A DNA stretch of 64,000 nucleotides from a virus. The DNA lies in the IMG/VR virus record IMGVR_UViG_3300045988_119379, positions 87,113-151,112 of that record; one strand, written 5' to 3'. Positions 11,641 through 36,568 of the stretch are shown here, in pieces (position 1 is the first letter of the stretch; each line of letters opens with the position of its first letter). A model generated the notes under the pieces. It was not told the DNA's origin, made no database searches, and saw only the letters and a program-made list of their open reading frames with translations. The position numbers and the translations under genes were made by a program.

Positions 11641-11745
11641 GATCCAGACCCAGGTCCTTCCGGTGGTGCGGGAGCCATAGTAAAAAATATGATTCCCGCA
11701 TTCCCGTTTTTCCCGTTTGGAAAAAAAAGGAATAAAAATATTATA

Positions 11746-13019: not shown

Positions 13020-13075
13020 GCTGAACTTGACGATTTTTTTCGTCAGATTATAATTTTTTTTTTATATCATTTTTA

Positions 13076-16100: not shown

Positions 16101-19100
16101 TACGGAGCAGATGGAAAAGTGGGATGCTGAAAATTCAGAATTGGAATTTAGTGAAAGTTATGCCACAAGAATGGAATCCATATACAAAAAGGCTGAAGAA
16201 GAATTAGGACATCCGGTTTCTCAAACAACCAAAGAATACCTTAATGCCTTATCCCGGCAAAAACGGATATTGAGGCAGCCTTTTATTGATAGCGGTGGTA
16301 ATTTTGATGAGGTTGCCTACTATAAGAGTAGTAACTACGAAGAAGAAGGACTGCTTCGTAAACAACGTAAGGAGGCAGCTTCGGAATACATATATGTAGG
16401 AACCAGGAGAGTGGAAAAAACCGGCGACCAACTTAAGATGGCCAAAGAAATACAAGCCATAAATGAAGTTTGGAGAAAAGAATCAAATAATGCCACTAAT
16501 GCCGTATCAGAATCGTTTTTGCAAAAATTAAGAACGATTCAGAGCGAGTCTGGAGGAGAAGCTGCGCTGAAGACACTTATGTTGGGAGGTCACCTGTCAT
16601 TCAACGATCGGTTTTGGAATGATGTAGAATCAGAACAGTCGGCACGTACCGAATCAAATAACAAGGCTTCGTATCTTAAAATGGCGCATGATATCATTAG
16701 TTCTACGACAAGTGATAGAGATGCGACTGACGTGGATTCTATTGTGAAAGATATAGAAAAAAATAAGGCTATTATCAAGGAAATAATCGGAAACAATCGC
16801 GATGTGGCTGATATCGGAGAGATTAACGAAGCGACATTTACCTCATCTGAAAGAGATGCTTTTAGGGCCGCATCTGAAGCTATTGAAGCCGATTACGCTA
16901 TTTTGATAGATTATGCTAAGGTGGTGGGTCTTGAAGATATTGATAAGTACCTTACTAAAAGCAGTAAGGCTGAAAACGAAGTAAATCAGTCTTATTTAAA
17001 TGCTCTTGCTGACTCCAAGGAAGTGGAATGGAAGTTCGTACAACGTCATACTACGGCGAAGAAAGCAAAAAGGATTCAGGCTTTAAGGGATAAGCTGTTT
17101 AAGGCTGCTGATAACCGATATCTGTTTACCGTATCTGAAACCAACTACCTGTCAGAAAAGCTTGGTATAAGCAAAGAATTAGACGGTAGAGATTTCAGGA
17201 ATGCTGTTAATGCTAAGATGGCCAGCTTATTTTTAAATAATACAAGAGAAGAGGGCGTAGAAGAAGCTAATGCTATTGTTAATGAATTTGCCAGAAGCCA
17301 GGTTTTTTCGTACTATAAACGCATGGCGCCTACCGGATATGCAGCTATGATCGACAAAATCGGTCGAGGTGAGATAGATGTGGCGCAAATGGTTAAGGAC
17401 GTACAAAACGGTACATCCACCCAAGATTATGGCATGGACATATCGTACTTGTCTTTCGACCCTGCAAGGGCATGGGTGGCTGAATCTGAAGCCGAAAATA
17501 GCGGTCGTAATCCTGATTATGTAAAAGATCATGGGTATGGTCATCGAATGCCTAAGAAAAGCCTGTATCGTGACGAATCGTATTTCAATGACTTTGGTAT
17601 CAAGTATGATGCTGACGGTAATGAGGTTGCTACTAAAAACGTAGAGCAGTGGAATATGATTCAAAAACTCAAGGAAATAAAAAGACAATCCCTTGATCTA
17701 TACAAAGAGCAGAGCCCGAATCTGTATGCTATTCCACAGATATCCAAACAAGATATAGAACGTGTAGAAGGATTGGGTATTAACTTCAAAAATACGGTTC
17801 GTAATTTTGTATCAGATCTGTGCCTGGACAGAGTAGACGATTCTCTATATGGTAAGACCAGGCAAGGAGAAGTGTATGATCCAGAAGACAGGCTTAGGTC
17901 TATACCTAAATACTACATATATGAATTGGAGAACCAAGATGATGTATCTCACGATTTTGGCTACTCTTATTCGATGCTTATGATGCAGTCATCGTTATAC
18001 AACGAAAAGCAGAAGTCTATAGAGCTCGCTCAAGGACTGGAGCAGATGTTACTAAATAAACAATTTGAAGGTGGTAAAAAGGCTGAAGCAACCCAAGCAT
18101 ATCAGATGTTCAGGGACTTCTTCAACGATCATTATTATGGCATTAGAATGAACACCAAAAAACTTACGGTGAACATCGGAGGATATACGGTAGACCTTAC
18201 AAGAATTATGATGGCTGTTGAAAGGTTTATGTCGGTCATGAACTTGGCACTGTCTCCATTTGTGGCAGCTACCGGCGCCTTAACAGGTCATATCAACCTC
18301 ATCATGGAATCTGCCGTAGGACAGTATATAAGCAAAGACTCCCTTAAATACGCATCGGCTGAATTTTCACGCCTTGCTCCATCTTGTATAGCAGAAACCG
18401 GAGACATAGATAGGAAAAGCAAATTATATGTCATAGGTGAGAGAATGGGGATATTCAATATCCGAAATCGTATGTATGGTGCCGGATACAATAGAGCGGC
18501 CAGGACCTTAATGCGTTCGCCTATGTATGCTTTTATGGAAATCCTGAACTACCCTCTTGATCCGCAGGTTATGATTGCTACTATGGACAATGTTCGTTAT
18601 TACAAAGGCCGGTTCTACACGTTCCAAGATTTCAAGATGGAAAAAGAACGCAATAAAGAACAGAGTACCATAAAAAGAGAATGGAACGCATTAAAAGATC
18701 GTACTTTATGGAGTATGGTAGACGTCGTGGATGGGAAGGTGGTTGTAAAGCCAGGATCGGGTGTTACTGTTGAGGAAGTAGAAACCCAGATGGCTATAAC
18801 CAGAAATCAAGTTCGTAGCTTGTCGCAGATATGCAACGGATCTTTGAATGAAGAAAACCGAACTGCCGCATCGCGCAACTGGATAGCCAGGTTCATGACC
18901 GCCCACCGAGGATGGTTGGTGCTGTCGGCTCAACGTCTGTGGAAAAGACGTGGCTTCAATTTCCAGACAATGCAAGAAGAGGAAGGGTTGTCAATTACGT
19001 TAAAGAATATGATAGCCAAAACATTTAGCCTGGCTTCCGAGTCTGGTATGAAAAACATCATAGATGCCTGGAATGAAAATAAAGACAATATGAATGAGGT

Positions 19101-19800: not shown

Positions 19801-20235
19801 ATGAGACGAAGATTTCAAATAGGGATGGGGGTAAATCCCTCGCTTATAATCAATAAAGGCATATACATCCAACATGTAGATGGAGGATTATATACAAAAG
19901 AAAATTGGTCTAATAAAGGATATTCCAATGATCTATGCAATGGAATAGCTCTTGTAGATAAAGTGTGTTTTGTTATAGCCACCGAATATATTGGCACATT
20001 TCGTTGGGGTAAGGATGGAGTAATAGACAATGCATTTGCACAAAATAGTTCTTATATGGAAACCGTTAAAAAGGATTATTGGGGGCGTGAAAATCAGAAT
20101 GCGTATCTTGAATATGATACCAGTAATGGAAATTACGCTTTTAATAAAGCTAATAGCTATTTATTTAAAAATGGTCAAAATGGATATGTAGGTGGCGCCG
20201 GAGAGTTTTTTTTTGATATCATTGTATGCGAATGA
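19801..20235 (+). CDS. hypothetical protein (144 aa)
   Basis: ATG 19801 downstream of terminator (track alt-start 19714 would run through the terminator). Confidence 0.5.
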   Translation: MRRRFQIGMGVNPSLIINKGIYIQHVDGGLYTKENWSNKGYSNDLCNGIALVDKVCFVIATEYIGTFRWGKDGVIDNAFAQNSSYMETVKKDYWGRENQNAYLEYDTSNGNYAFNKANSYLFKNGQNGYVGGAGEFFFDIIVCE

Positions 20236-20602
20236 AATAAACGAATGCCTTTTAATGGTAGGAGGTACGATAATAAGTAATAAAATGTGGACATCCACTC
20301 AATCTACACAATTTACCTATTCGTGGTATTATGATATAAACATCCAAGGAGATCATTTGAGTACAAGTACAAGGAGTAATCCACGTTATGTCCGTCCTTT
20401 TACTGAATTAATTTTATGAAATTATGAGAAGAAGATATCAAAATAATGCTAAACTATATGAGTATAAGATAGTTAGTAACTGTATAGGGGGGGGTGTTAT
20501 GTAAATAATGAACTTATCGGAACCGTCCCTGATGGTGGTGAGCTTATATACCAATCTTCTAAAAAACGGTTGGATACTGTGTATATTCGAGGAGGTGTTC
20601 CA

Positions 20603-21160
20603 ATGGAAGATAGGCAAGAGATCGATAGTCAGGTTGATACGACAGAGGAATTGCTTGAACAGGATTCGGTGGTTCTTACTATTGCTTTAACAACCTCTCC
20701 TTATTATGGATTTATAGTAAGTGTAATAGCTCCTGATGAGTTTACGCTAAGAACAACCAATAGGATTAATAGAACCTTTTTAATAACAAGCTTTACTCCA
20801 CCTGCTGCTATATACGGTGTAAACTTTGGTGATCCTATTGTCCTTAATTATGATAGTTACCAATATGAGATGCCAGATCTTGTAATTGATGGACCTCATG
20901 ATAGAATAGTTAGGGCAGATCCTAATCTTACTTGGGTTGTAAGATGTACAGATACCGACTTTACACCTTTGCCATATCCAGAATCATGGTCTGGCCAAGG
21001 TTTAAATTCTATATTCTTACCAGAAATGAAACGTCCTGCTCCTGGTGATCATCATGTATCATATACAACTTATATTAATTTGGACTTGATAGATGATGGC
21101 GGAAGTAAAGTTCATACTGAATATCTGATATTAGAAAAAACACTTAATTTTACGATATGA
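20603..21160 (+). CDS. hypothetical protein (185 aa)
   Basis: GGAGG at 20591-20595 then ATG 20603; last + strand gene before strand switch. Confidence 0.55.
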   Translation: MEDRQEIDSQVDTTEELLEQDSVVLTIALTTSPYYGFIVSVIAPDEFTLRTTNRINRTFLITSFTPPAAIYGVNFGDPIVLNYDSYQYEMPDLVIDGPHDRIVRADPNLTWVVRCTDTDFTPLPYPESWSGQGLNSIFLPEMKRPAPGDHHVSYTTYINLDLIDDGGSKVHTEYLILEKTLNFTI

Positions 21161-21206
21161 CAACAATCCCCAACCGTACGCCTATTGTATGGTTGGGGAT
21201 TGTTGT
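21160..21206. terminator. bidirectional hairpin at convergence point: perfect 16-bp inverted repeat ACAACAATCCCCAACC / GGTTGGGGATTGTTGT with 15-nt loop
   Basis: exact 16-bp IR between last + gene (ends 21160) and last - gene (ends 21250). Confidence 0.55.
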
Positions 21207-21249
21207 AGTTACCATCTTTTCTTGTATAAGCAGAACATGAAATAAGTTT

Positions 21250-21980: not shown

Positions 21981-22172
21981 TCAGCATAAAAATTTGTAAC
22001 CTGGTTTTACTGTCTCCGCTTCTTCTCTCGTATCAAACATTAAGGTAGTGACAGCTCCTATGCCTTCGCAAACGTAAGATACTTTCACCCACCACCTAAA
22101 AATCCCAGATCCGTAATCATCATAGTACGGCTCAGAAAGAACTTCTTCTACATACCCATCCAAATAATTCAC
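21981..22172 (-). CDS. hypothetical protein (63 aa)
   Basis: ORF in packed array, ATGA overlap. Confidence 0.4.
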   Translation of the reverse strand: MNYLDGYVEEVLSEPYYDDYGSGIFRWWVKVSYVCEGIGAVTTLMFDTREEAETVKPGYKFLC

Positions 22173-22882
22173 GATCGCTCCTCCTTATTTTTAGATTCAG
22201 CCTCTTCAAGTATGCTGATCACCTTATCAACAATATCCGAATCAGACATTTTCTCAATAAAAATATCCATTGCCTTAGTTATGTCATTGGCTTCTTTTTC
22301 TTCAAGAGCTATTTCCCCACCGGTAATAGCATCAGATAATGATGTAGATAAGTGTCTTATCTTATCAATGCTCATAAACGTAAATGGATTACCACCTTGA
22401 CCCCCACCCATTTCTTTCATGATCTGATATCCACCTGAGATAAGTCTGCCTGATGTCGTGGCCAAGGAGGATACGATTAGGGACAGTACCGCCGCTTCCG
22501 TCCGCTCCTCGGACACACCCTTCGACCACACGGCTGCCCTTATAGCGCCGGCCAGATCGTCTATGTATGGCATGAGGCAATCTTCCATCGCTTGTGTTAT
22601 ATCAGCTATAACCTCACTACGCTCTTTATTTATGTAGTAGATAGAAGCATTGTACCTCTTTATCTCCTTATCCATATCATTCAAAAATCGTTTGACATTA
22701 TGTTTGTACATAGGACCACCCTTAATCACTTCCTTTAGCTTAAGAATGTAATTATAAGCCTGGTCGTTTACGAACAACGTCATGGTTTCAACCGTTGAAT
22801 GAAGCGTGTTGAGGCTGTTAAGAATCTTATCGAAATTGTTTATCAAATAAGCTTTTCTGGCTTTTGCCGCGTAATTAATCAT
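22169..22882 (-). CDS. hypothetical protein (237 aa)
   Basis: ORF in packed array. Confidence 0.55.
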   Translation of the reverse strand: MINYAAKARKAYLINNFDKILNSLNTLHSTVETMTLFVNDQAYNYILKLKEVIKGGPMYKHNVKRFLNDMDKEIKRYNASIYYINKERSEVIADITQAMEDCLMPYIDDLAGAIRAAVWSKGVSEERTEAAVLSLIVSSLATTSGRLISGGYQIMKEMGGGQGGNPFTFMSIDKIRHLSTSLSDAITGGEIALEEKEANDITKAMDIFIEKMSDSDIVDKVISILEEAESKNKEERS

Positions 22883-23417
22883 CGTATTCGAATTTTAGAT
22901 TTTCAAGTTCGTGTATTTGTAACTTAAGAGACTTAATTAAATCCGTTCTCTGCTCCTCTGCATGTTTTAAAGCCTCTTCCTTGCTTTCAAAAGCACAATC
23001 CCCTATCTGATAAGGGGTGTAACGACCAGGAGTGTCGGCTAATAAAAGACCACCATAATCTTCTATTCTGGCTTTTACCTTTCTTATTTTCCCATCTTTT
23101 AGACACATGTCCGTAACCCATACGAATTTACCATATAATTTATCATACTTTTCTAATCTCTCTTCTTGCAATTCATACCATTTAGGCTTAGGAAATCTTA
23201 ATGTGAATTTAACCTCAGTATCTTTTTCTAAGACATTAATATCGTATGCTTCCGGCCACAGCTCTTTTATGCTGTCTTCGTCTTCGGCATACGCTACAAG
23301 TATGAATGAATCATCGGATTCACCACTACACCAATATGGATATTTTATAGGCCATTTGACTGGACGGTAGTCGTTATCGCAGTCGGATTTTTTAATGTAA
23401 AATCTTGTTCTAATCAT
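22875..23417 (-). CDS. hypothetical protein (180 aa)
   Basis: ORF in packed array. Confidence 0.55.
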   Translation of the reverse strand: MIRTRFYIKKSDCDNDYRPVKWPIKYPYWCSGESDDSFILVAYAEDEDSIKELWPEAYDINVLEKDTEVKFTLRFPKPKWYELQEERLEKYDKLYGKFVWVTDMCLKDGKIRKVKARIEDYGGLLLADTPGRYTPYQIGDCAFESKEEALKHAEEQRTDLIKSLKLQIHELENLKFEYDD

Positions 23418-24593
23418 GATTCTTTTATTCTTTTAAGTATATGTTCAATCACTTTAATAGTCCACCCGTTTCCCAACATCTTGTACTGTTGGGTTTCGCT
23501 GCATTCCCATTTATACCAATCTGGTACAGTCTGTAACCTGGAGCACTCTGTAGGGGTTAATCTTCTTATTCTGAAATCGCCATGTAATGTTCTCTGTATG
23601 ATAAAATTGTTTCTATCATATGAATTACAAGATAATGTTGGAGCCTTATCTTCATGAAATCCACCTTTGTTAAATCCTCTTGGTATTTGGAAAATAAGAT
23701 TATCTTCCTGAACTGTTGTGGGACAATTGGATTTTCCATCGTTTTTAAATTCAATCATCTGAACTGTTTTAAGACCAGATTCTCTACATGTAGGTTTTTC
23801 TGGATTCCTGCCTCTCATTGCTACACAAATAAGATCGTATGTGTATTTACCTTTTACGGTAACAGTATTGGATTTTTCATCTTTTGTTTTAATATTAGCT
23901 CCATAATAATTTCCCTTGTCGTGATTTCTTTTCAAGTGAAAAGCTAAATTGTTTAAAACTTTTTCAGATAAGTAATATTTTTCATCTACTTCATATTCAG
24001 CTATATCACTTATGGTCAAACCTTCGTCTTCAGGTTGAGGAATAATGCCGCCTTGAATATTAGTCCAATAAATACGTTTCCTGACTTGAGCGGAAACAAG
24101 TGCTGAATTAATATGATTGCCTTTACACCCTATAGTATCATCGAATACCGGCTCCCATTTCTTTCCCATCTTAACGTTCTCAAGAAGAAACAACACATCA
24201 GGATTAGTTTTTCTTACATCATTCAAAATACGAATAAACTCCCAGAATAAGTAAGACTGACCGGCAAATTCAAATCCTTGTTTTTTTTAATTCAAGATAC
24301 TCATTAAGTGATTTGATTTCTATTCCTTCTACGGTAGACAACCCTTTTCTTTTTCCAGAAAAGGACATATCCGTACATGGGCTGCCGGCTAAAATAAGAT
24401 CTATGTGTCCAAGATCTTCTACATTCAAATCCCTTACATCTCCTACTTGTATAGTATTAGGGAAATTTAATTGCGTTTGTTTAATAGCAAACTTATCTAT
24501 TTCTGATGCATAATATACTTCAGGTGTGATCCCTATTTCTTTTAACGCTATTTGACCACATGACATTCCGTCAAATAAACTTAACACTCTCAT
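23414..24593 (-). CDS. DNA (cytosine-5)-methyltransferase, split by a +1 frameshift at an A8 tract (24281-24288). N-part 24270-24593, C-part 23414-24226/24289.
   Basis: motif I MRVLSLFDGMSCG, motif IV GSPCTDMS, then after frameshift FEF...ENV (LFLLENV) and C-terminal GNGWT; removing one A restores ...LELKKQGFEFAGQSYLFWEF... Confidence 0.75.
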
Positions 24594-24597
24594 GGCA

Positions 24598-24906
24598 TTA
24601 TACACATTTTTCAATTTTAATTGATTTTGATGATAGATACATATTCCATATTCCTCTGCCTCTGTCACCTTTTTCGTTTTGTTTTTGGATTGTCAAGTAC
24701 AGATCTCCGTCTTCACATACTTCAACTTTTTTCAAGAAGCCTATCATTTCATCTCCTGCTTCGTGTAAAATACGGATCTTATCTCCTTCTTTTAACCCAT
24801 AATTGGAATCAAAATATTCTTTTTTGATTCTATCAATATTGTCTTTATGGTTTTTTATAGCATAAAGCTCTTTTCTTAATAAATAATTTAGTTGTTCTAT
24901 TGTCAT
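24598..24906 (-). CDS. hypothetical protein (102 aa)
   Basis: ORF; ends 4 nt before MTase start Met. Confidence 0.5.
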   Translation of the reverse strand: MTIEQLNYLLRKELYAIKNHKDNIDRIKKEYFDSNYGLKEGDKIRILHEAGDEMIGFLKKVEVCEDGDLYLTIQKQNEKGDRGRGIWNMYLSSKSIKIEKCV

Positions 24907-25448
24907 TTCTTTTCCTCCTTATTTAATGGTATCAACCCTTTTCCATGCTTGTCATACCACAGCATAGCTATGCAGTTCCATGCACATTGTGCAAGATGAA
25001 AACATCCTGTATCGGAATCCACTCTTTCTCCTTTCATGTATTCCATCAGGTGTCGAAACATTGCAGCTCGATACCGTTCAAATCCGTTGTCAAGATTCTG
25101 CCAATTATTAGGCCCATATTTCTTGGCTCCGGCATGATAGACTTTTACAATGTCCTCAATCTCTTCCATTGGAAGCAAATCCCATCGTAGTTTGTCGTCA
25201 ATGATGTCATTCTTTACCGACTTACTTTCTTTATTTTCAAAAAGAGTATTATCACTCTTAGATATATATTCAACTGGTACATCGAACTTCATACGACCTT
25301 CGTATGACAGTGTAACTTCTGTATCTCCTTTTTTGATATCCTTTTCACATGCAACCTTAAGTCCTTTTCTGGCTACTGTTACTTCACGAACATTAAGATC
25401 TCTGTTAAGAACTACATCGGTTCCTTTTTTAATAATAATATCGTCCAT
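24903..25448 (-). CDS. hypothetical protein (181 aa); C-terminal half (RWDLLP...AGAKKYGPNNW...) loosely resembles phage dATP/dGTP diphosphohydrolase-like domains (tentative)
   Basis: ORF; motif recall only. Confidence 0.45.
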   Translation of the reverse strand: MDDIIIKKGTDVVLNRDLNVREVTVARKGLKVACEKDIKKGDTEVTLSYEGRMKFDVPVEYISKSDNTLFENKESKSVKNDIIDDKLRWDLLPMEEIEDIVKVYHAGAKKYGPNNWQNLDNGFERYRAAMFRHLMEYMKGERVDSDTGCFHLAQCAWNCIAMLWYDKHGKGLIPLNKEEKK

Positions 25449-26966: not shown

Positions 26967-27323
26967 TCACATTATTCCTACCAAATTTACTTTTATAGAA
27001 CCATTTATGGTTTTAATGCTCCCATCTATGGTCGAAATCACATCATCTATATCATTTATAATACTTTCCATGTCATCAACCACCTCCTCCATATCAGTTA
27101 CAGCCTGATCTGATTCCCAATATCTTTCTGAGTCTTGTAACGATTCCGGTATATTATCTCTCGCCTCAGTCTCTTCGTCTAAAATCATATCAACATCATC
27201 TTTGGCTGAATTTATGTTGTGCTTCAACTCCGACAACTTTGATTTGATGTATTCAAAATCTGTTTTATACTTATTTACATTGTTAATAACATCCGATATT
27301 TTTTTTCTTCTCTTGTTGTTCAT
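26967..27323 (-). CDS. hypothetical coiled-coil protein (118 aa)
   Basis: ORF. Confidence 0.5.
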   Translation of the reverse strand: MNNKRRKKISDVINNVNKYKTDFEYIKSKLSELKHNINSAKDDVDMILDEETEARDNIPESLQDSERYWESDQAVTDMEEVVDDMESIINDIDDVISTIDGSIKTINGSIKVNLVGIM

Positions 27324-34529: not shown

Positions 34530-35132
34530 TTAACTGTTGTACCCTTCTTTAATAATCGAATTTCTACCGGTAGATACCGACTGTCTAAGATCGTCATGTA
34601 CAGAATCTACCGTAGAGTACTTGTTTCTGGTTGTAAAAATCACTTCCAGCATCTCCTTGTAATCACCTAAAGCTACTTCGTATCTCGGATCTACTTTGGC
34701 TTTTCTTTCAGCCTCGGCATTACTTTTAGCCAGCTCCCGGTCGAGGAGGTCTTCTTTGATTCGGTCAGCAATCATATCAAGTTCTTTTTTAATAACTTCT
34801 CCTGCTGCCCGAAGTTGACCTTCTACGTCACCAAGCTGGTCTTGGACGGTTCCTATTTCTTTCTTTAGGCGATCGTATTCGTTAATCATACCCATATCAC
34901 CTGCATAGCCGGAAAAGTCCTTGATTATTCTGGTTCCTTCTTTAAGGAGCTCAATAACTCGTCTTTTACGTTCTCTGCTTATTAAAGACGGAAGACGATA
35001 ATTCATATCCGCCACCGCCTTATCATGTATGGAGTTGATTAAAAACATCTCTCTTTCATCTCCTGCAAACTCAGTAAGAACCAAAAGGAACTTACTTATC
35101 AGGTATTCGTTTTCTTCTACTGTTAGTCTCAT
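34530..35132 (-). CDS. hypothetical coiled-coil protein (200 aa)
   Basis: ORF. Confidence 0.5.
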   Translation of the reverse strand: MRLTVEENEYLISKFLLVLTEFAGDEREMFLINSIHDKAVADMNYRLPSLISRERKRRVIELLKEGTRIIKDFSGYAGDMGMINEYDRLKKEIGTVQDQLGDVEGQLRAAGEVIKKELDMIADRIKEDLLDRELAKSNAEAERKAKVDPRYEVALGDYKEMLEVIFTTRNKYSTVDSVHDDLRQSVSTGRNSIIKEGYNS

Positions 35133-35148
35133 GGTTCTTATTTTTTTT

Positions 35149-36276
35149 TTAATACAATGACTGTTCTTCTTTTGTCTCTTGTTCCTGATTGTCCGTAACG
35201 TCTTCCACAGTATAGAGCTTAGGCGGCGTCGGCGGCTGGTTGGGGTTCACGAACTTCGTCCCGCCCTCCCCGTACATCCATCCATGCCCCGGCAGAATCT
35301 CTGGGTGGATTGTATTAGTAAGCTCTTCCATACTAACTTGCCTTACCTTCAGTATATGATGAAACACCAGTCCGGCTGTCCTGAATGATGTTTTGTTTTC
35401 AGTTTTAAACCTATCAAGAGTCTGATACCAATCTTTCCCAAATATCATATACTTATCCAGCCCGTACCTACGAGGATTGTGCAAACCTATCATTAACGTA
35501 CATAACTGACCCAGCGTATCAGATTGGTAAAAATCAGAAAGACGCGGAGGCTGCTCTTGTGGGCTTTTTATCCTTCCTTCTATCTCTCTGTTGAATTGGG
35601 ATATGATGAGGAAAAATATGTTTTTATATACTAATTTAGCTTCGTTCATAACCGCCACCAAATCATCTATAGCCGACTTAGGATCTAATCCCATTCTTTT
35701 TATCAAAGCAATATGATCGACTTTAAATATTATAAGACGTTTGTCTTTGTGTTTGGTAGCTATATGATACACAGCCGCCTCAAACTCTTTTACCGTACAC
35801 GGAGCATCTATGTATATTATATTATTCCTAATTTCACCTTGAAGGATTTCAAACATCCTCATCTCTTCCACTGTATTATAATCTTGCCTTCTTAATATTT
35901 CAGGAGCTCTTTTTTTCATATCCTGGCTCATTCTGCGAAGAAGAAGATCTTGAGGATTCATTTCGAACTCGCAATTGACAAGAAAATAATCTTCTGCTTG
36001 CGGGTTGATCATCGGATTCATCACATTTTTCAATATCTTTTGGGCCACATACGATTTACCTACAGATGGCCGGGCTCCTATGGCAATAGCGTGCTGAGGA
36101 AAAATACCTCCAAGCAAAGCCTCATCAATATAATCGTATCCGGTTTTAGCGGGGATAAGCTCTCCCCGTCTGTATTTCAGAATATTCTCATACGCCTCTT
36201 CCATAACCTGTTTAGAGGTCTTGAATATCCTTCTTATATCTATCCTATTTGCTATCTCCTCTTGCATTTTTGTCAC
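35149..36276 (-). CDS. DnaB-family replicative helicase-like RecA-fold ATPase (375 aa)
   Basis: Walker A GARPSVGKS; Walker B IIFKVDH; motif ISQFNREIEGR...RLSDFYQSDTLGQL matches DnaB LSQLNR...SDLRESGxIEQ. Confidence 0.65.
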   Translation of the reverse strand: MTKMQEEIANRIDIRRIFKTSKQVMEEAYENILKYRRGELIPAKTGYDYIDEALLGGIFPQHAIAIGARPSVGKSYVAQKILKNVMNPMINPQAEDYFLVNCEFEMNPQDLLLRRMSQDMKKRAPEILRRQDYNTVEEMRMFEILQGEIRNNIIYIDAPCTVKEFEAAVYHIATKHKDKRLIIFKVDHIALIKRMGLDPKSAIDDLVAVMNEAKLVYKNIFFLIISQFNREIEGRIKSPQEQPPRLSDFYQSDTLGQLCTLMIGLHNPRRYGLDKYMIFGKDWYQTLDRFKTENKTSFRTAGLVFHHILKVRQVSMEELTNTIHPEILPGHGWMYGEGGTKFVNPNQPPTPPKLYTVEDVTDNQEQETKEEQSLY

Positions 36277-36568
36277 CTTTCGTATCCGATTTGGATCCCC
36301 TATTAGCTTTTACTGATTTATACCTAAGACCGTTCTTGGTATGAGAACAATCCTTGCCTTTTCTCCAGCCCTTACCCTTCTTCTTGTCCGTTTCGTAGTT
36401 TTTACGACCAAGCTCTCGGCGTTTGGCTTTCTGTTCCGGTCTGGCATTTATCTCCTTGTCCTTTTTAGCCTTTTTCTTCCTGGCTTCGGGATGAGTCCTG
36501 TAGTACTCTGTTGATCTGCCCATGTGCTTATATTTTTTTTTGATTAATAATAGCACAAAGATAGGCAA
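36245..36568 (-). CDS. highly basic Lys/Arg-rich protein (about 92-107 aa; possible nucleic-acid-binding)
   Basis: ORF; KKKAKKDK, KKKGKGWRKGK; A9 tract near its 5' end. Confidence 0.45.
   Translation of the reverse strand: MPIFVLLLIKKKYKHMGRSTEYYRTHPEARKKKAKKDKEINARPEQKAKRRELGRKNYETDKKKGKGWRKGKDCSHTKNGLRYKSVKANRGSKSDTKGDKNARGDSK

Follow-up and report, generated by a model that had tools for sequence, protein, structure and literature searches.

A phage C5-cytosine DNA methyltransferase gene interrupted at an A run of variable length: a candidate for slow phase variation

Results

The methyltransferase gene is split at a run of eight A

The DNA analysed here, referred to as the window, is a stretch of 64,000 nucleotides (nt) corresponding to positions 87,113-151,112 of the IMG/VR virus record IMGVR_UViG_3300045988_119379; in the region of interest, both strands were read and translated. 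Its minus strand carries a gene for a DNMT3-like C5-cytosine DNA methyltransferase (23414-24593) that is divided between two reading frames at a run of eight A (24281-24288, T8 on the plus strand). From the ATG at 24593, frame 0 opens with MRVLSLFDGMSCG and includes both motif I (LSLFDGMSCG, 24555-24584) and motif IV (GSPCTDMS, 24363-24386). It is closed by a TGA at 24270-24272, 9 nt past the run, and its product of 107 amino acids (24270-24593) holds motifs I-IV only and ends in LELKKTRI. The +1 frame resumes at QGFEFAGQSYLFWEFIRIL and continues to the stop at 23414-23416; this 3' part (23414-24280) encodes the FWEF helix, motif VI (ENV within FLLENV, 24173-24190), motif VIII (QxRxR within SAQVRKRIYW, 24065-24094), the target-recognition region, motif IX (RRLTPTECSRLQTVPD, 23519-23566) and motif X (GNG within MLGNGW, 23462-23479). 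The original prediction had placed motifs I and IV in one frame ending just past the A8 run and the FxExxR, ENV and C-terminal motifs in the +1 frame, a layout that translation bore out.

The uninterrupted methyltransferase that had been predicted upon deletion of one A was also recovered, as an open reading frame (ORF) of 392 amino acids with motifs I, IV, VI, VIII, IX and X in canonical order. This repaired protein matched Pfam PF00145 with E = 2.8e-39 (135.9 bits, cut-off 22) and PHROG 116, 'DNA methyltransferase', with 1.7e-65, which together with the set of motifs supported the assignment to the C5-cytosine enzymes. The top matches among solved structures were DNMT3B (4e-18) and M.HhaI (2e-15), with DNMT3A also present (PDB 7v0e, 6kda, 10mh). 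The signatures of motifs I and IV (VLSLFDG... and GSPC.D.S) are common to the phage protein, the catalytic domain of DNMT3A/3B and M.HhaI; the alignment is mainly over residues 1-86, with a weaker part over residues 109-201, and the target-recognition region is unrelated.

The sole match in the phage collection was phage csAssE-Sib (OR575929.1; human gut, Russia; 151 kilobases, kb), with around 97% identity, for which no publication was found in the literature searched. Its methylase ortholog (WOZ57332.1) is intact, is 375 amino acids long and has A7 where the window has A8 in a base-by-base alignment. As the two genes align base for base over the junction, the run length aside, both ORFs of the window are parts of one broken gene and not a chance pair. 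In A7 orthologs all the methylase motifs lie in a single ORF, whereas in the window copy they do not. Besides the A8 run, the window copy carries no second lesion.

The length of the A run varies among related genomes

A protein-guided scan of IMG/VR yielded about 50 close orthologs, and a pattern scan requiring exact flanks located the site in 47 contigs. The run was A7 in 35 of these, A8 in nine, A9 in two and A10 in one; in a metagenome collection, the same pattern gave 12 cases of A7 and one of A9. By exact protein look-up, the 107-residue A8 product of the window, identical to GenBank UVX68129.1, was found on 201 contigs and a second A8 haplotype on 160, with versions whose start was called further upstream on 76, 23 and 10 contigs. 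The same look-up detected A9 products (8 contigs), A6 products (...LELKNKDL...; 2, 17 and 6 contigs) and also the A10 product LELKKKQGF. The index of the collection listed the A8 product in 379 blocks, and ten of the loci were read from independent SRA/ENA samples. Only expansions of the run were seen in IMG/VR, the contractions (A6) coming from the larger collection. The gene is in frame with A7 or A10 (ON) and out of frame with A6, A8 or A9 (OFF), and approximately one quarter of the sampled genomes have an out-of-frame run.

Out-of-frame alleles were spread across the gene tree. Fitch parsimony required at least 10 length changes, 8 of them between ON and OFF, over a tree totalling 0.35 substitutions per site and with A7 at the root, and out-of-frame alleles appear to have arisen independently at least 8-10 times. 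The OFF alleles were located on distinct strain backgrounds; their nearest in-frame neighbours showed 35-170 differences over 3-7 kb, and no ON/OFF genome pair close enough for an estimate of the switching rate was found. In one case, an identical gene sequence carried A8 on one contig and A9 on two others. The A run is a mutational hot spot.

Two other coding runs served as controls. The first, an A8 run at a distance of 3 kb (27299-27306), was A8 in 37 of 37 loci, and a coding A7 run in the gene of a 2140-residue structural protein (16757-16763) was A7 in 27 of 27 haplotypes. Changes of length in 12 of 47 methylase runs compared with 0 of 37 for the A8 control gave p = 0.0008 in a Fisher test. 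Outside genes, the length of A/T runs at 11721, 11794, 12676, 13034, 13054, 32870, 35141 and 36533 differed among related genomes. Since the intergenic runs vary and the control coding runs are constant, homopolymers appear to mutate often in these genomes, the changes being visible where selection allows them. Length changes at 24851-24856 and 21135-21140 were apparent only, both being due to substitutions and not to an indel.

Most out-of-frame alleles are otherwise intact

When the run was reset to A7, each of the 12 out-of-frame loci that the first IMG/VR search had yielded gave a full-length ORF, and eight of ten further A8 loci ended in a normal C-terminus, the remaining two (L307 and L309) being decayed. 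An extra IMG/VR contig with A8, identified by the pattern scan (L088), had its 3' part replaced. Judging by the sequences, most OFF alleles are one step from ON. The median pairwise ratio of non-synonymous to synonymous substitution rates (dN/dS) was 0.19 (814 pairs from 44 distinct alleles), which shows that purifying selection maintains the gene, including the part 3' of the run. The irreversible lesions found in relatives, which are detailed below, indicate that the methylase is accessory and open to loss, and some OFF alleles are the first step in this direction.

Slippage at the run as a proposed slow ON/OFF switch

In the in-frame state, the A7 run is made by the codons TTA-AAA-AAA (Leu-Lys-Lys). 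Slippage of the replication polymerase would add or remove an A, leaving the gene ON with A7 or A10 and OFF with A6, A8 or A9. With A8, translation would halt after 107 residues, with loss of ENV, QxRxR, the target-recognition domain and motifs IX-X. Such an allele would produce no methylase save by rare transcriptional or ribosomal slippage, and a small leak through slippage of RNA polymerase on A8 is plausible. When made, the enzyme would methylate the DNA of the phage itself and shield it from sequence-specific restriction enzymes, but where the host has methyl-dependent (Type IV) restriction, methylation would come at a cost or do harm. A population with both states would be hedged because methylation would help against the former and harm against the latter, and the mixture would amount to slow phase variation.

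The reality and recurrence of the A8 allele are highly probable. That it is a genuine OFF allele which owes its origin to slippage at a mutational hot spot, and that this represents at least de facto slow phase variation, is the reading that we favour, with a probability of roughly 0.6. Adaptive and reversible switching, considered by itself, is a tentative proposal with the odds somewhat against it. The slip-strand phase-variable methylase suggested by the original prediction is supported at the level of the population, where alleles from A6 to A10, at least ten length changes and mostly intact OFF alleles were found. The in-frame A10 alleles (L045 and P0017) fit what would be expected of further slippage from A8 or A9 under selection for function.

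Several points weigh against the reading of slow phase variation. The evidence on run length is a comparison of assembled contigs between genomes. A run of seven A is short by the standard of classical contingency loci, and a single E-to-K change (GAA to AAA) appears to have given rise to it, since orthologs at 50-80% identity lack the run (LELKEQ, LDLKSK, LELKEE). The absence of any homopolymer in orthologs had been named beforehand as an argument against the switch, and it proved true of these distant orthologs and false of the close ones, in all of which the run is present. The run was constant as AAA-AAA in the 44 alleles, yet just one of 24 invariant Lys columns was polymorphic for AAA/AAG; as hardly any such column varies, this constancy is uninformative on selection, and codon usage was discarded as evidence for selective upkeep of the run. 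Lesions beyond the run were a replaced 3' part (L307), a deletion just past the run (L309), a TGG-to-TAG nonsense mutation in L016 (codon 362), the loss of 16 nt in L135, a +1 insertion in a different short run together with a 326-nt deletion in L140 and a 228-nt deletion that removed the run and the ENV motif (L059), and in L311 a stop codon had been created within the run itself. Finally, the window carries the longest version seen at the intergenic runs at 13034, 35141 and 36533, and it has a second +1 homopolymer frameshift, at a T9 run (20206-20214), both of which would be compatible with over-calling of homopolymers by the assembly.

Alternative explanations

The strongest competitor is one-way decay, according to which a dispensable methylase is lost repeatedly, the A run is simply its most mutable site and the OFF alleles are young pseudogenes. 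The irreversible lesions of L016, L135, L140, L059 and L088, the loss of the 3' part in two of the ten further A8 loci and the stop codon within the run of L311 are all in line with it, as are a short run made by one substitution and the absence of any sign of selection for that run in the Lys codons. A gene under decay alone would fit less well with a dN/dS of 0.19, which shows the gene to be maintained in the lineage, with the lack of a second lesion in most OFF alleles and with an out-of-frame run in about a quarter of the sampled genomes; in addition, the in-frame A10 alleles fit a restoration of the frame by further slippage. On balance we regard one-way decay as unlikely, though it has to be taken seriously. 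The suggestion that the gene is a recent pseudogene is in this way partly supported for the lineage, where nonsense mutations, deletions and two decayed A8 loci out of ten were found, but not for the window, whose copy has no lesion other than A8.

A homopolymer miscall, with a true genome of A7 to which sequencing or assembly added an A, was among the readings first proposed. It draws on the presence of two +1 homopolymer frameshifts in the window (at 24281 and 20206) and on the frequency with which the window is longest at intergenic runs, which may reflect either a trait of the strain or mild over-calling by the assembly. However, the same A8 N-terminal haplotype was present on 201 contigs from independent runs, and, among coding runs, it is precisely the two frameshifted ones of the window that vary in nature. 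Other coding runs examined, such as those at 2960, 16757 and 35910, leave their ORFs unsplit, and those at 16757 and 27299 have the length usual among relatives; no homopolymer-split ORF was found in the window beyond the methylase and the gene at 19803-20419. Because A8 recurs on so many independent contigs and the control coding runs are invariant, an error private to the window is very unlikely.

Programmed recoding would allow A8 alleles to yield the full-length enzyme still, either by a +1 ribosomal slip on AAA-AAA-A or by slippage of RNA polymerase, which is known in bacteria on A/T runs of at least eight. The A7 protein (LELKKQGFEF) would be reproduced exactly by a +1 slip of the Lys-tRNA on A8, and the A10 protein by a -1 slip on A9, and the occurrence of expansions alone in IMG/VR would agree with such a device. 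Nevertheless, the in-frame A7 is both the majority and the ancestral form, in which recoding is unneeded, and the RNA fold downstream is no better than that of shuffled sequences (z = -0.78), for which reasons a programmed frameshift was rejected. The run has no stop or rare codon in the position typical of prfB-type sites, the larger collection includes A6 alleles, and further decay is seen in some A8 alleles, as would be expected of true nulls; this makes the explanation highly improbable. An active methylase assembled from two subunits, as in M.AquI, was discarded as barely credible even though gene callers give a second ORF of 233-260 amino acids with a PF00145 match 3' of the stop, as the ancestral form is a single chain, the break falls between motifs IV and VI whereas known splits lie in the variable region, and the first downstream start, a TTG at 24226, omits the conserved QGFEFAGQSYLFWEFIRIL segment.

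Variation in the rest of the gene

The variable, target-recognition region of the window gene contains an in-frame segment of 51 nt (23708-23758, minus strand) located between ACAGTTCAG direct repeats and missing from csAssE-Sib and from the variants of 375 amino acids. The methylase orthologs fall into length classes of 374/375, 387/388, 390-392 and 399 amino acids. Both the length classes and the flanked segment suggest that the target-recognition region has been remodelled in frame repeatedly, possibly altering the specificity of the enzyme.

When the methylase gene was compared with that of csAssE-Sib, the first 305 nt (24288-24593) had one difference, the next 300 nt or so (23970-24280) about 25, and the last 280 nt none. 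This pattern indicates a mosaic gene with a recombination boundary near the A run. In five independent samples, a contig (36 kb long in one case) ends inside the methylase A run (...GAATTAAAAAA; L312-L316, which are DRR875499_3503, ERR13990468_7429, ERR4088789_17159, SRR15372908_37423 and ERZ15184698 NODE_10784). Ends of this kind would fit reads that disagree on the length of the run and cause a branch in the assembly graph, but they are taken as a mere hint because of the recombination boundary nearby.

Genomic context and host

No nuclease domain was detected with Pfam and PHROGs in the flanking ORFs at 22875-23417, 24598-24906 and 22169-22882. By these domains there is no adjacent endonuclease of the kind expected in a Type II restriction-modification system. 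The neighbourhood is one of phage DNA-metabolism genes, including helicases, an exonuclease and a dATP/dGTP diphosphohydrolase; the latter is encoded two genes upstream of the methylase (24903-25448, minus strand; PF18909, 8e-27), and diphosphohydrolases of this type accompany purine-replacement (Z-base) pathways in some phages. Given this setting and the lack of a detectable nuclease domain in the flanking genes, the enzyme appears to be a solitary phage methylase. Solitary phage methylases usually protect against host restriction, and by analogy this one is probably anti-restriction as well.

The nearest bacterial homologs, at 43-55% identity, belong to Dysgonomonas, Muribaculaceae, Prevotella and other Bacteroidales. 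The host is probably a member of the Bacteroidales, as suggested by these homologs, the gut source and a G+C content of 38%. No prophage copy was found in a search of one genome per species. The phage lineage related to csAssE-Sib is widespread and abundant in the human gut.

A second split gene and other runs

The second gene of the window split by a homopolymer (19803-20419, plus strand) has the T9 run mentioned above where csAssE-Sib has T8. It is the ortholog of csAssE-Sib WOZ57324.1 (205 amino acids, an orphan family) and lies just downstream of the 2140-residue structural protein. Among related loci, the run was T7 in 11, T8 in about 87 and T9 in about 11, and in the protein collection the truncated products are grouped in large clusters. 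The product gave no match to Pfam or PHROG, with homologs found within this phage lineage only, and its AlphaFold model was unusable (predicted local distance difference test score, pLDDT, of 28). Its C-terminus may bear some resemblance to DUF1566 or lectin-like domains.

A G8 run on the plus strand (20487-20494), in the spacer upstream of an ORF that starts at 20508 or 20570, was G8 or G9 among relatives. The region of the window from 20445 to 21233 is not shared with csAssE-Sib.

A frameshift was also considered at the A10 run 35141-35150, near a DnaB-like helicase, and rejected, as the run sits past the stop codon and before the next ATG. In the csAssE-Sib record (L141, 35532-37273), the GenBank coding sequence of the DnaB-like helicase and the following one overlap by 139 nt; the counterpart in the window is at 34530-36309 on the minus strand. 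In both genomes the TAA of the helicase runs directly into the A8/A10 run, after which comes the ATG of the gene that follows, and for this reason the overlap is a choice of annotation and not a frameshift.

Discussion

Phage methylases are usually seen as fixed anti-restriction equipment. Here a single mutable run leaves the gene ON in about three quarters of the genomes and OFF in about one quarter. If the switch were reversible and selected, phage populations would hold a standing epigenetic diversity, with consequences for the hosts they can infect, for the inference of host range from methylation motifs and for the use of gut phages, and self-methylation by phages would be tied to how methylation-sensitive and methylation-dependent restriction are balanced in Bacteroidales. 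In practice, such alleles will be reported by annotation pipelines as two fragments or as pseudogenes, as exemplified by the 107-residue fragment UVX68129.1 in GenBank.

A broader and more doubtful proposal is that the lineage keeps at least two coding runs as contingency loci, the A7 of the C5 methylase and the T8 of the orphan-family gene, with methylating and non-methylating particles in every population. If true, every phage population would be hedged between hosts with sequence-specific enzymes and hosts with methyl-dependent (Type IV) ones, would also contain variants of a virion-associated function, and would offer the first phage-encoded phase-variable epigenetic switch.

In bacteria, the control of methylase genes by simple repeats is well established (PMC12707154, PMC13076061, PMC4889913). 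Phasevarions governed by Type III mod or Type I hsd genes, and homopolymer-controlled Type II/IIG enzymes such as cj0031 of Campylobacter jejuni, share with the present gene the slippage of a repeat within the ORF that toggles the reading frame. The differences are several: the gene lies in a phage genome instead of a bacterial chromosome; it encodes a solitary C5 enzyme and not an N6-adenine mod subunit of Type I or III; and its repeat is a short poly-A of seven instead of a long poly-G or tetranucleotide array. Moreover, the bacterial genes switch clonally at high frequency, whereas what was seen here is variation at the population level among contigs, and the presumed pay-off is escape from restriction and not the regulation of host genes.

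Among phages, hypermutable poly-G runs are established in receptor-binding or tail genes of Campylobacter phages (Sorensen et al. 2021 Cell Rep 35:109214, cited in PMC12823448 and PMC10877375). The trait in common is the presence of coding homopolymers that create mixed ON/OFF phage populations, although poly-G alters the host range at adsorption and the poly-A described here affects a gene for DNA modification. The other variable gene of the window (19803-20419) adjoins a giant structural protein.

Solitary anti-restriction methylases are known from other phages, examples being Dam of T4 and P1 and the multispecific C5 enzymes of the Bacillus phages SPbeta and phi3T, which are likewise encoded without a partner nuclease among DNA-metabolism genes. 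No description of a homopolymer ON/OFF polymorphism in these methylases was found in the literature searched, nor was any report of a phage-encoded phase-variable C5 methylase, which is not proof of absence. The present case is best filed as a mechanism known from bacteria and from phage tail genes whose instance in a phage-encoded methylase appears to be new within the literature searched.

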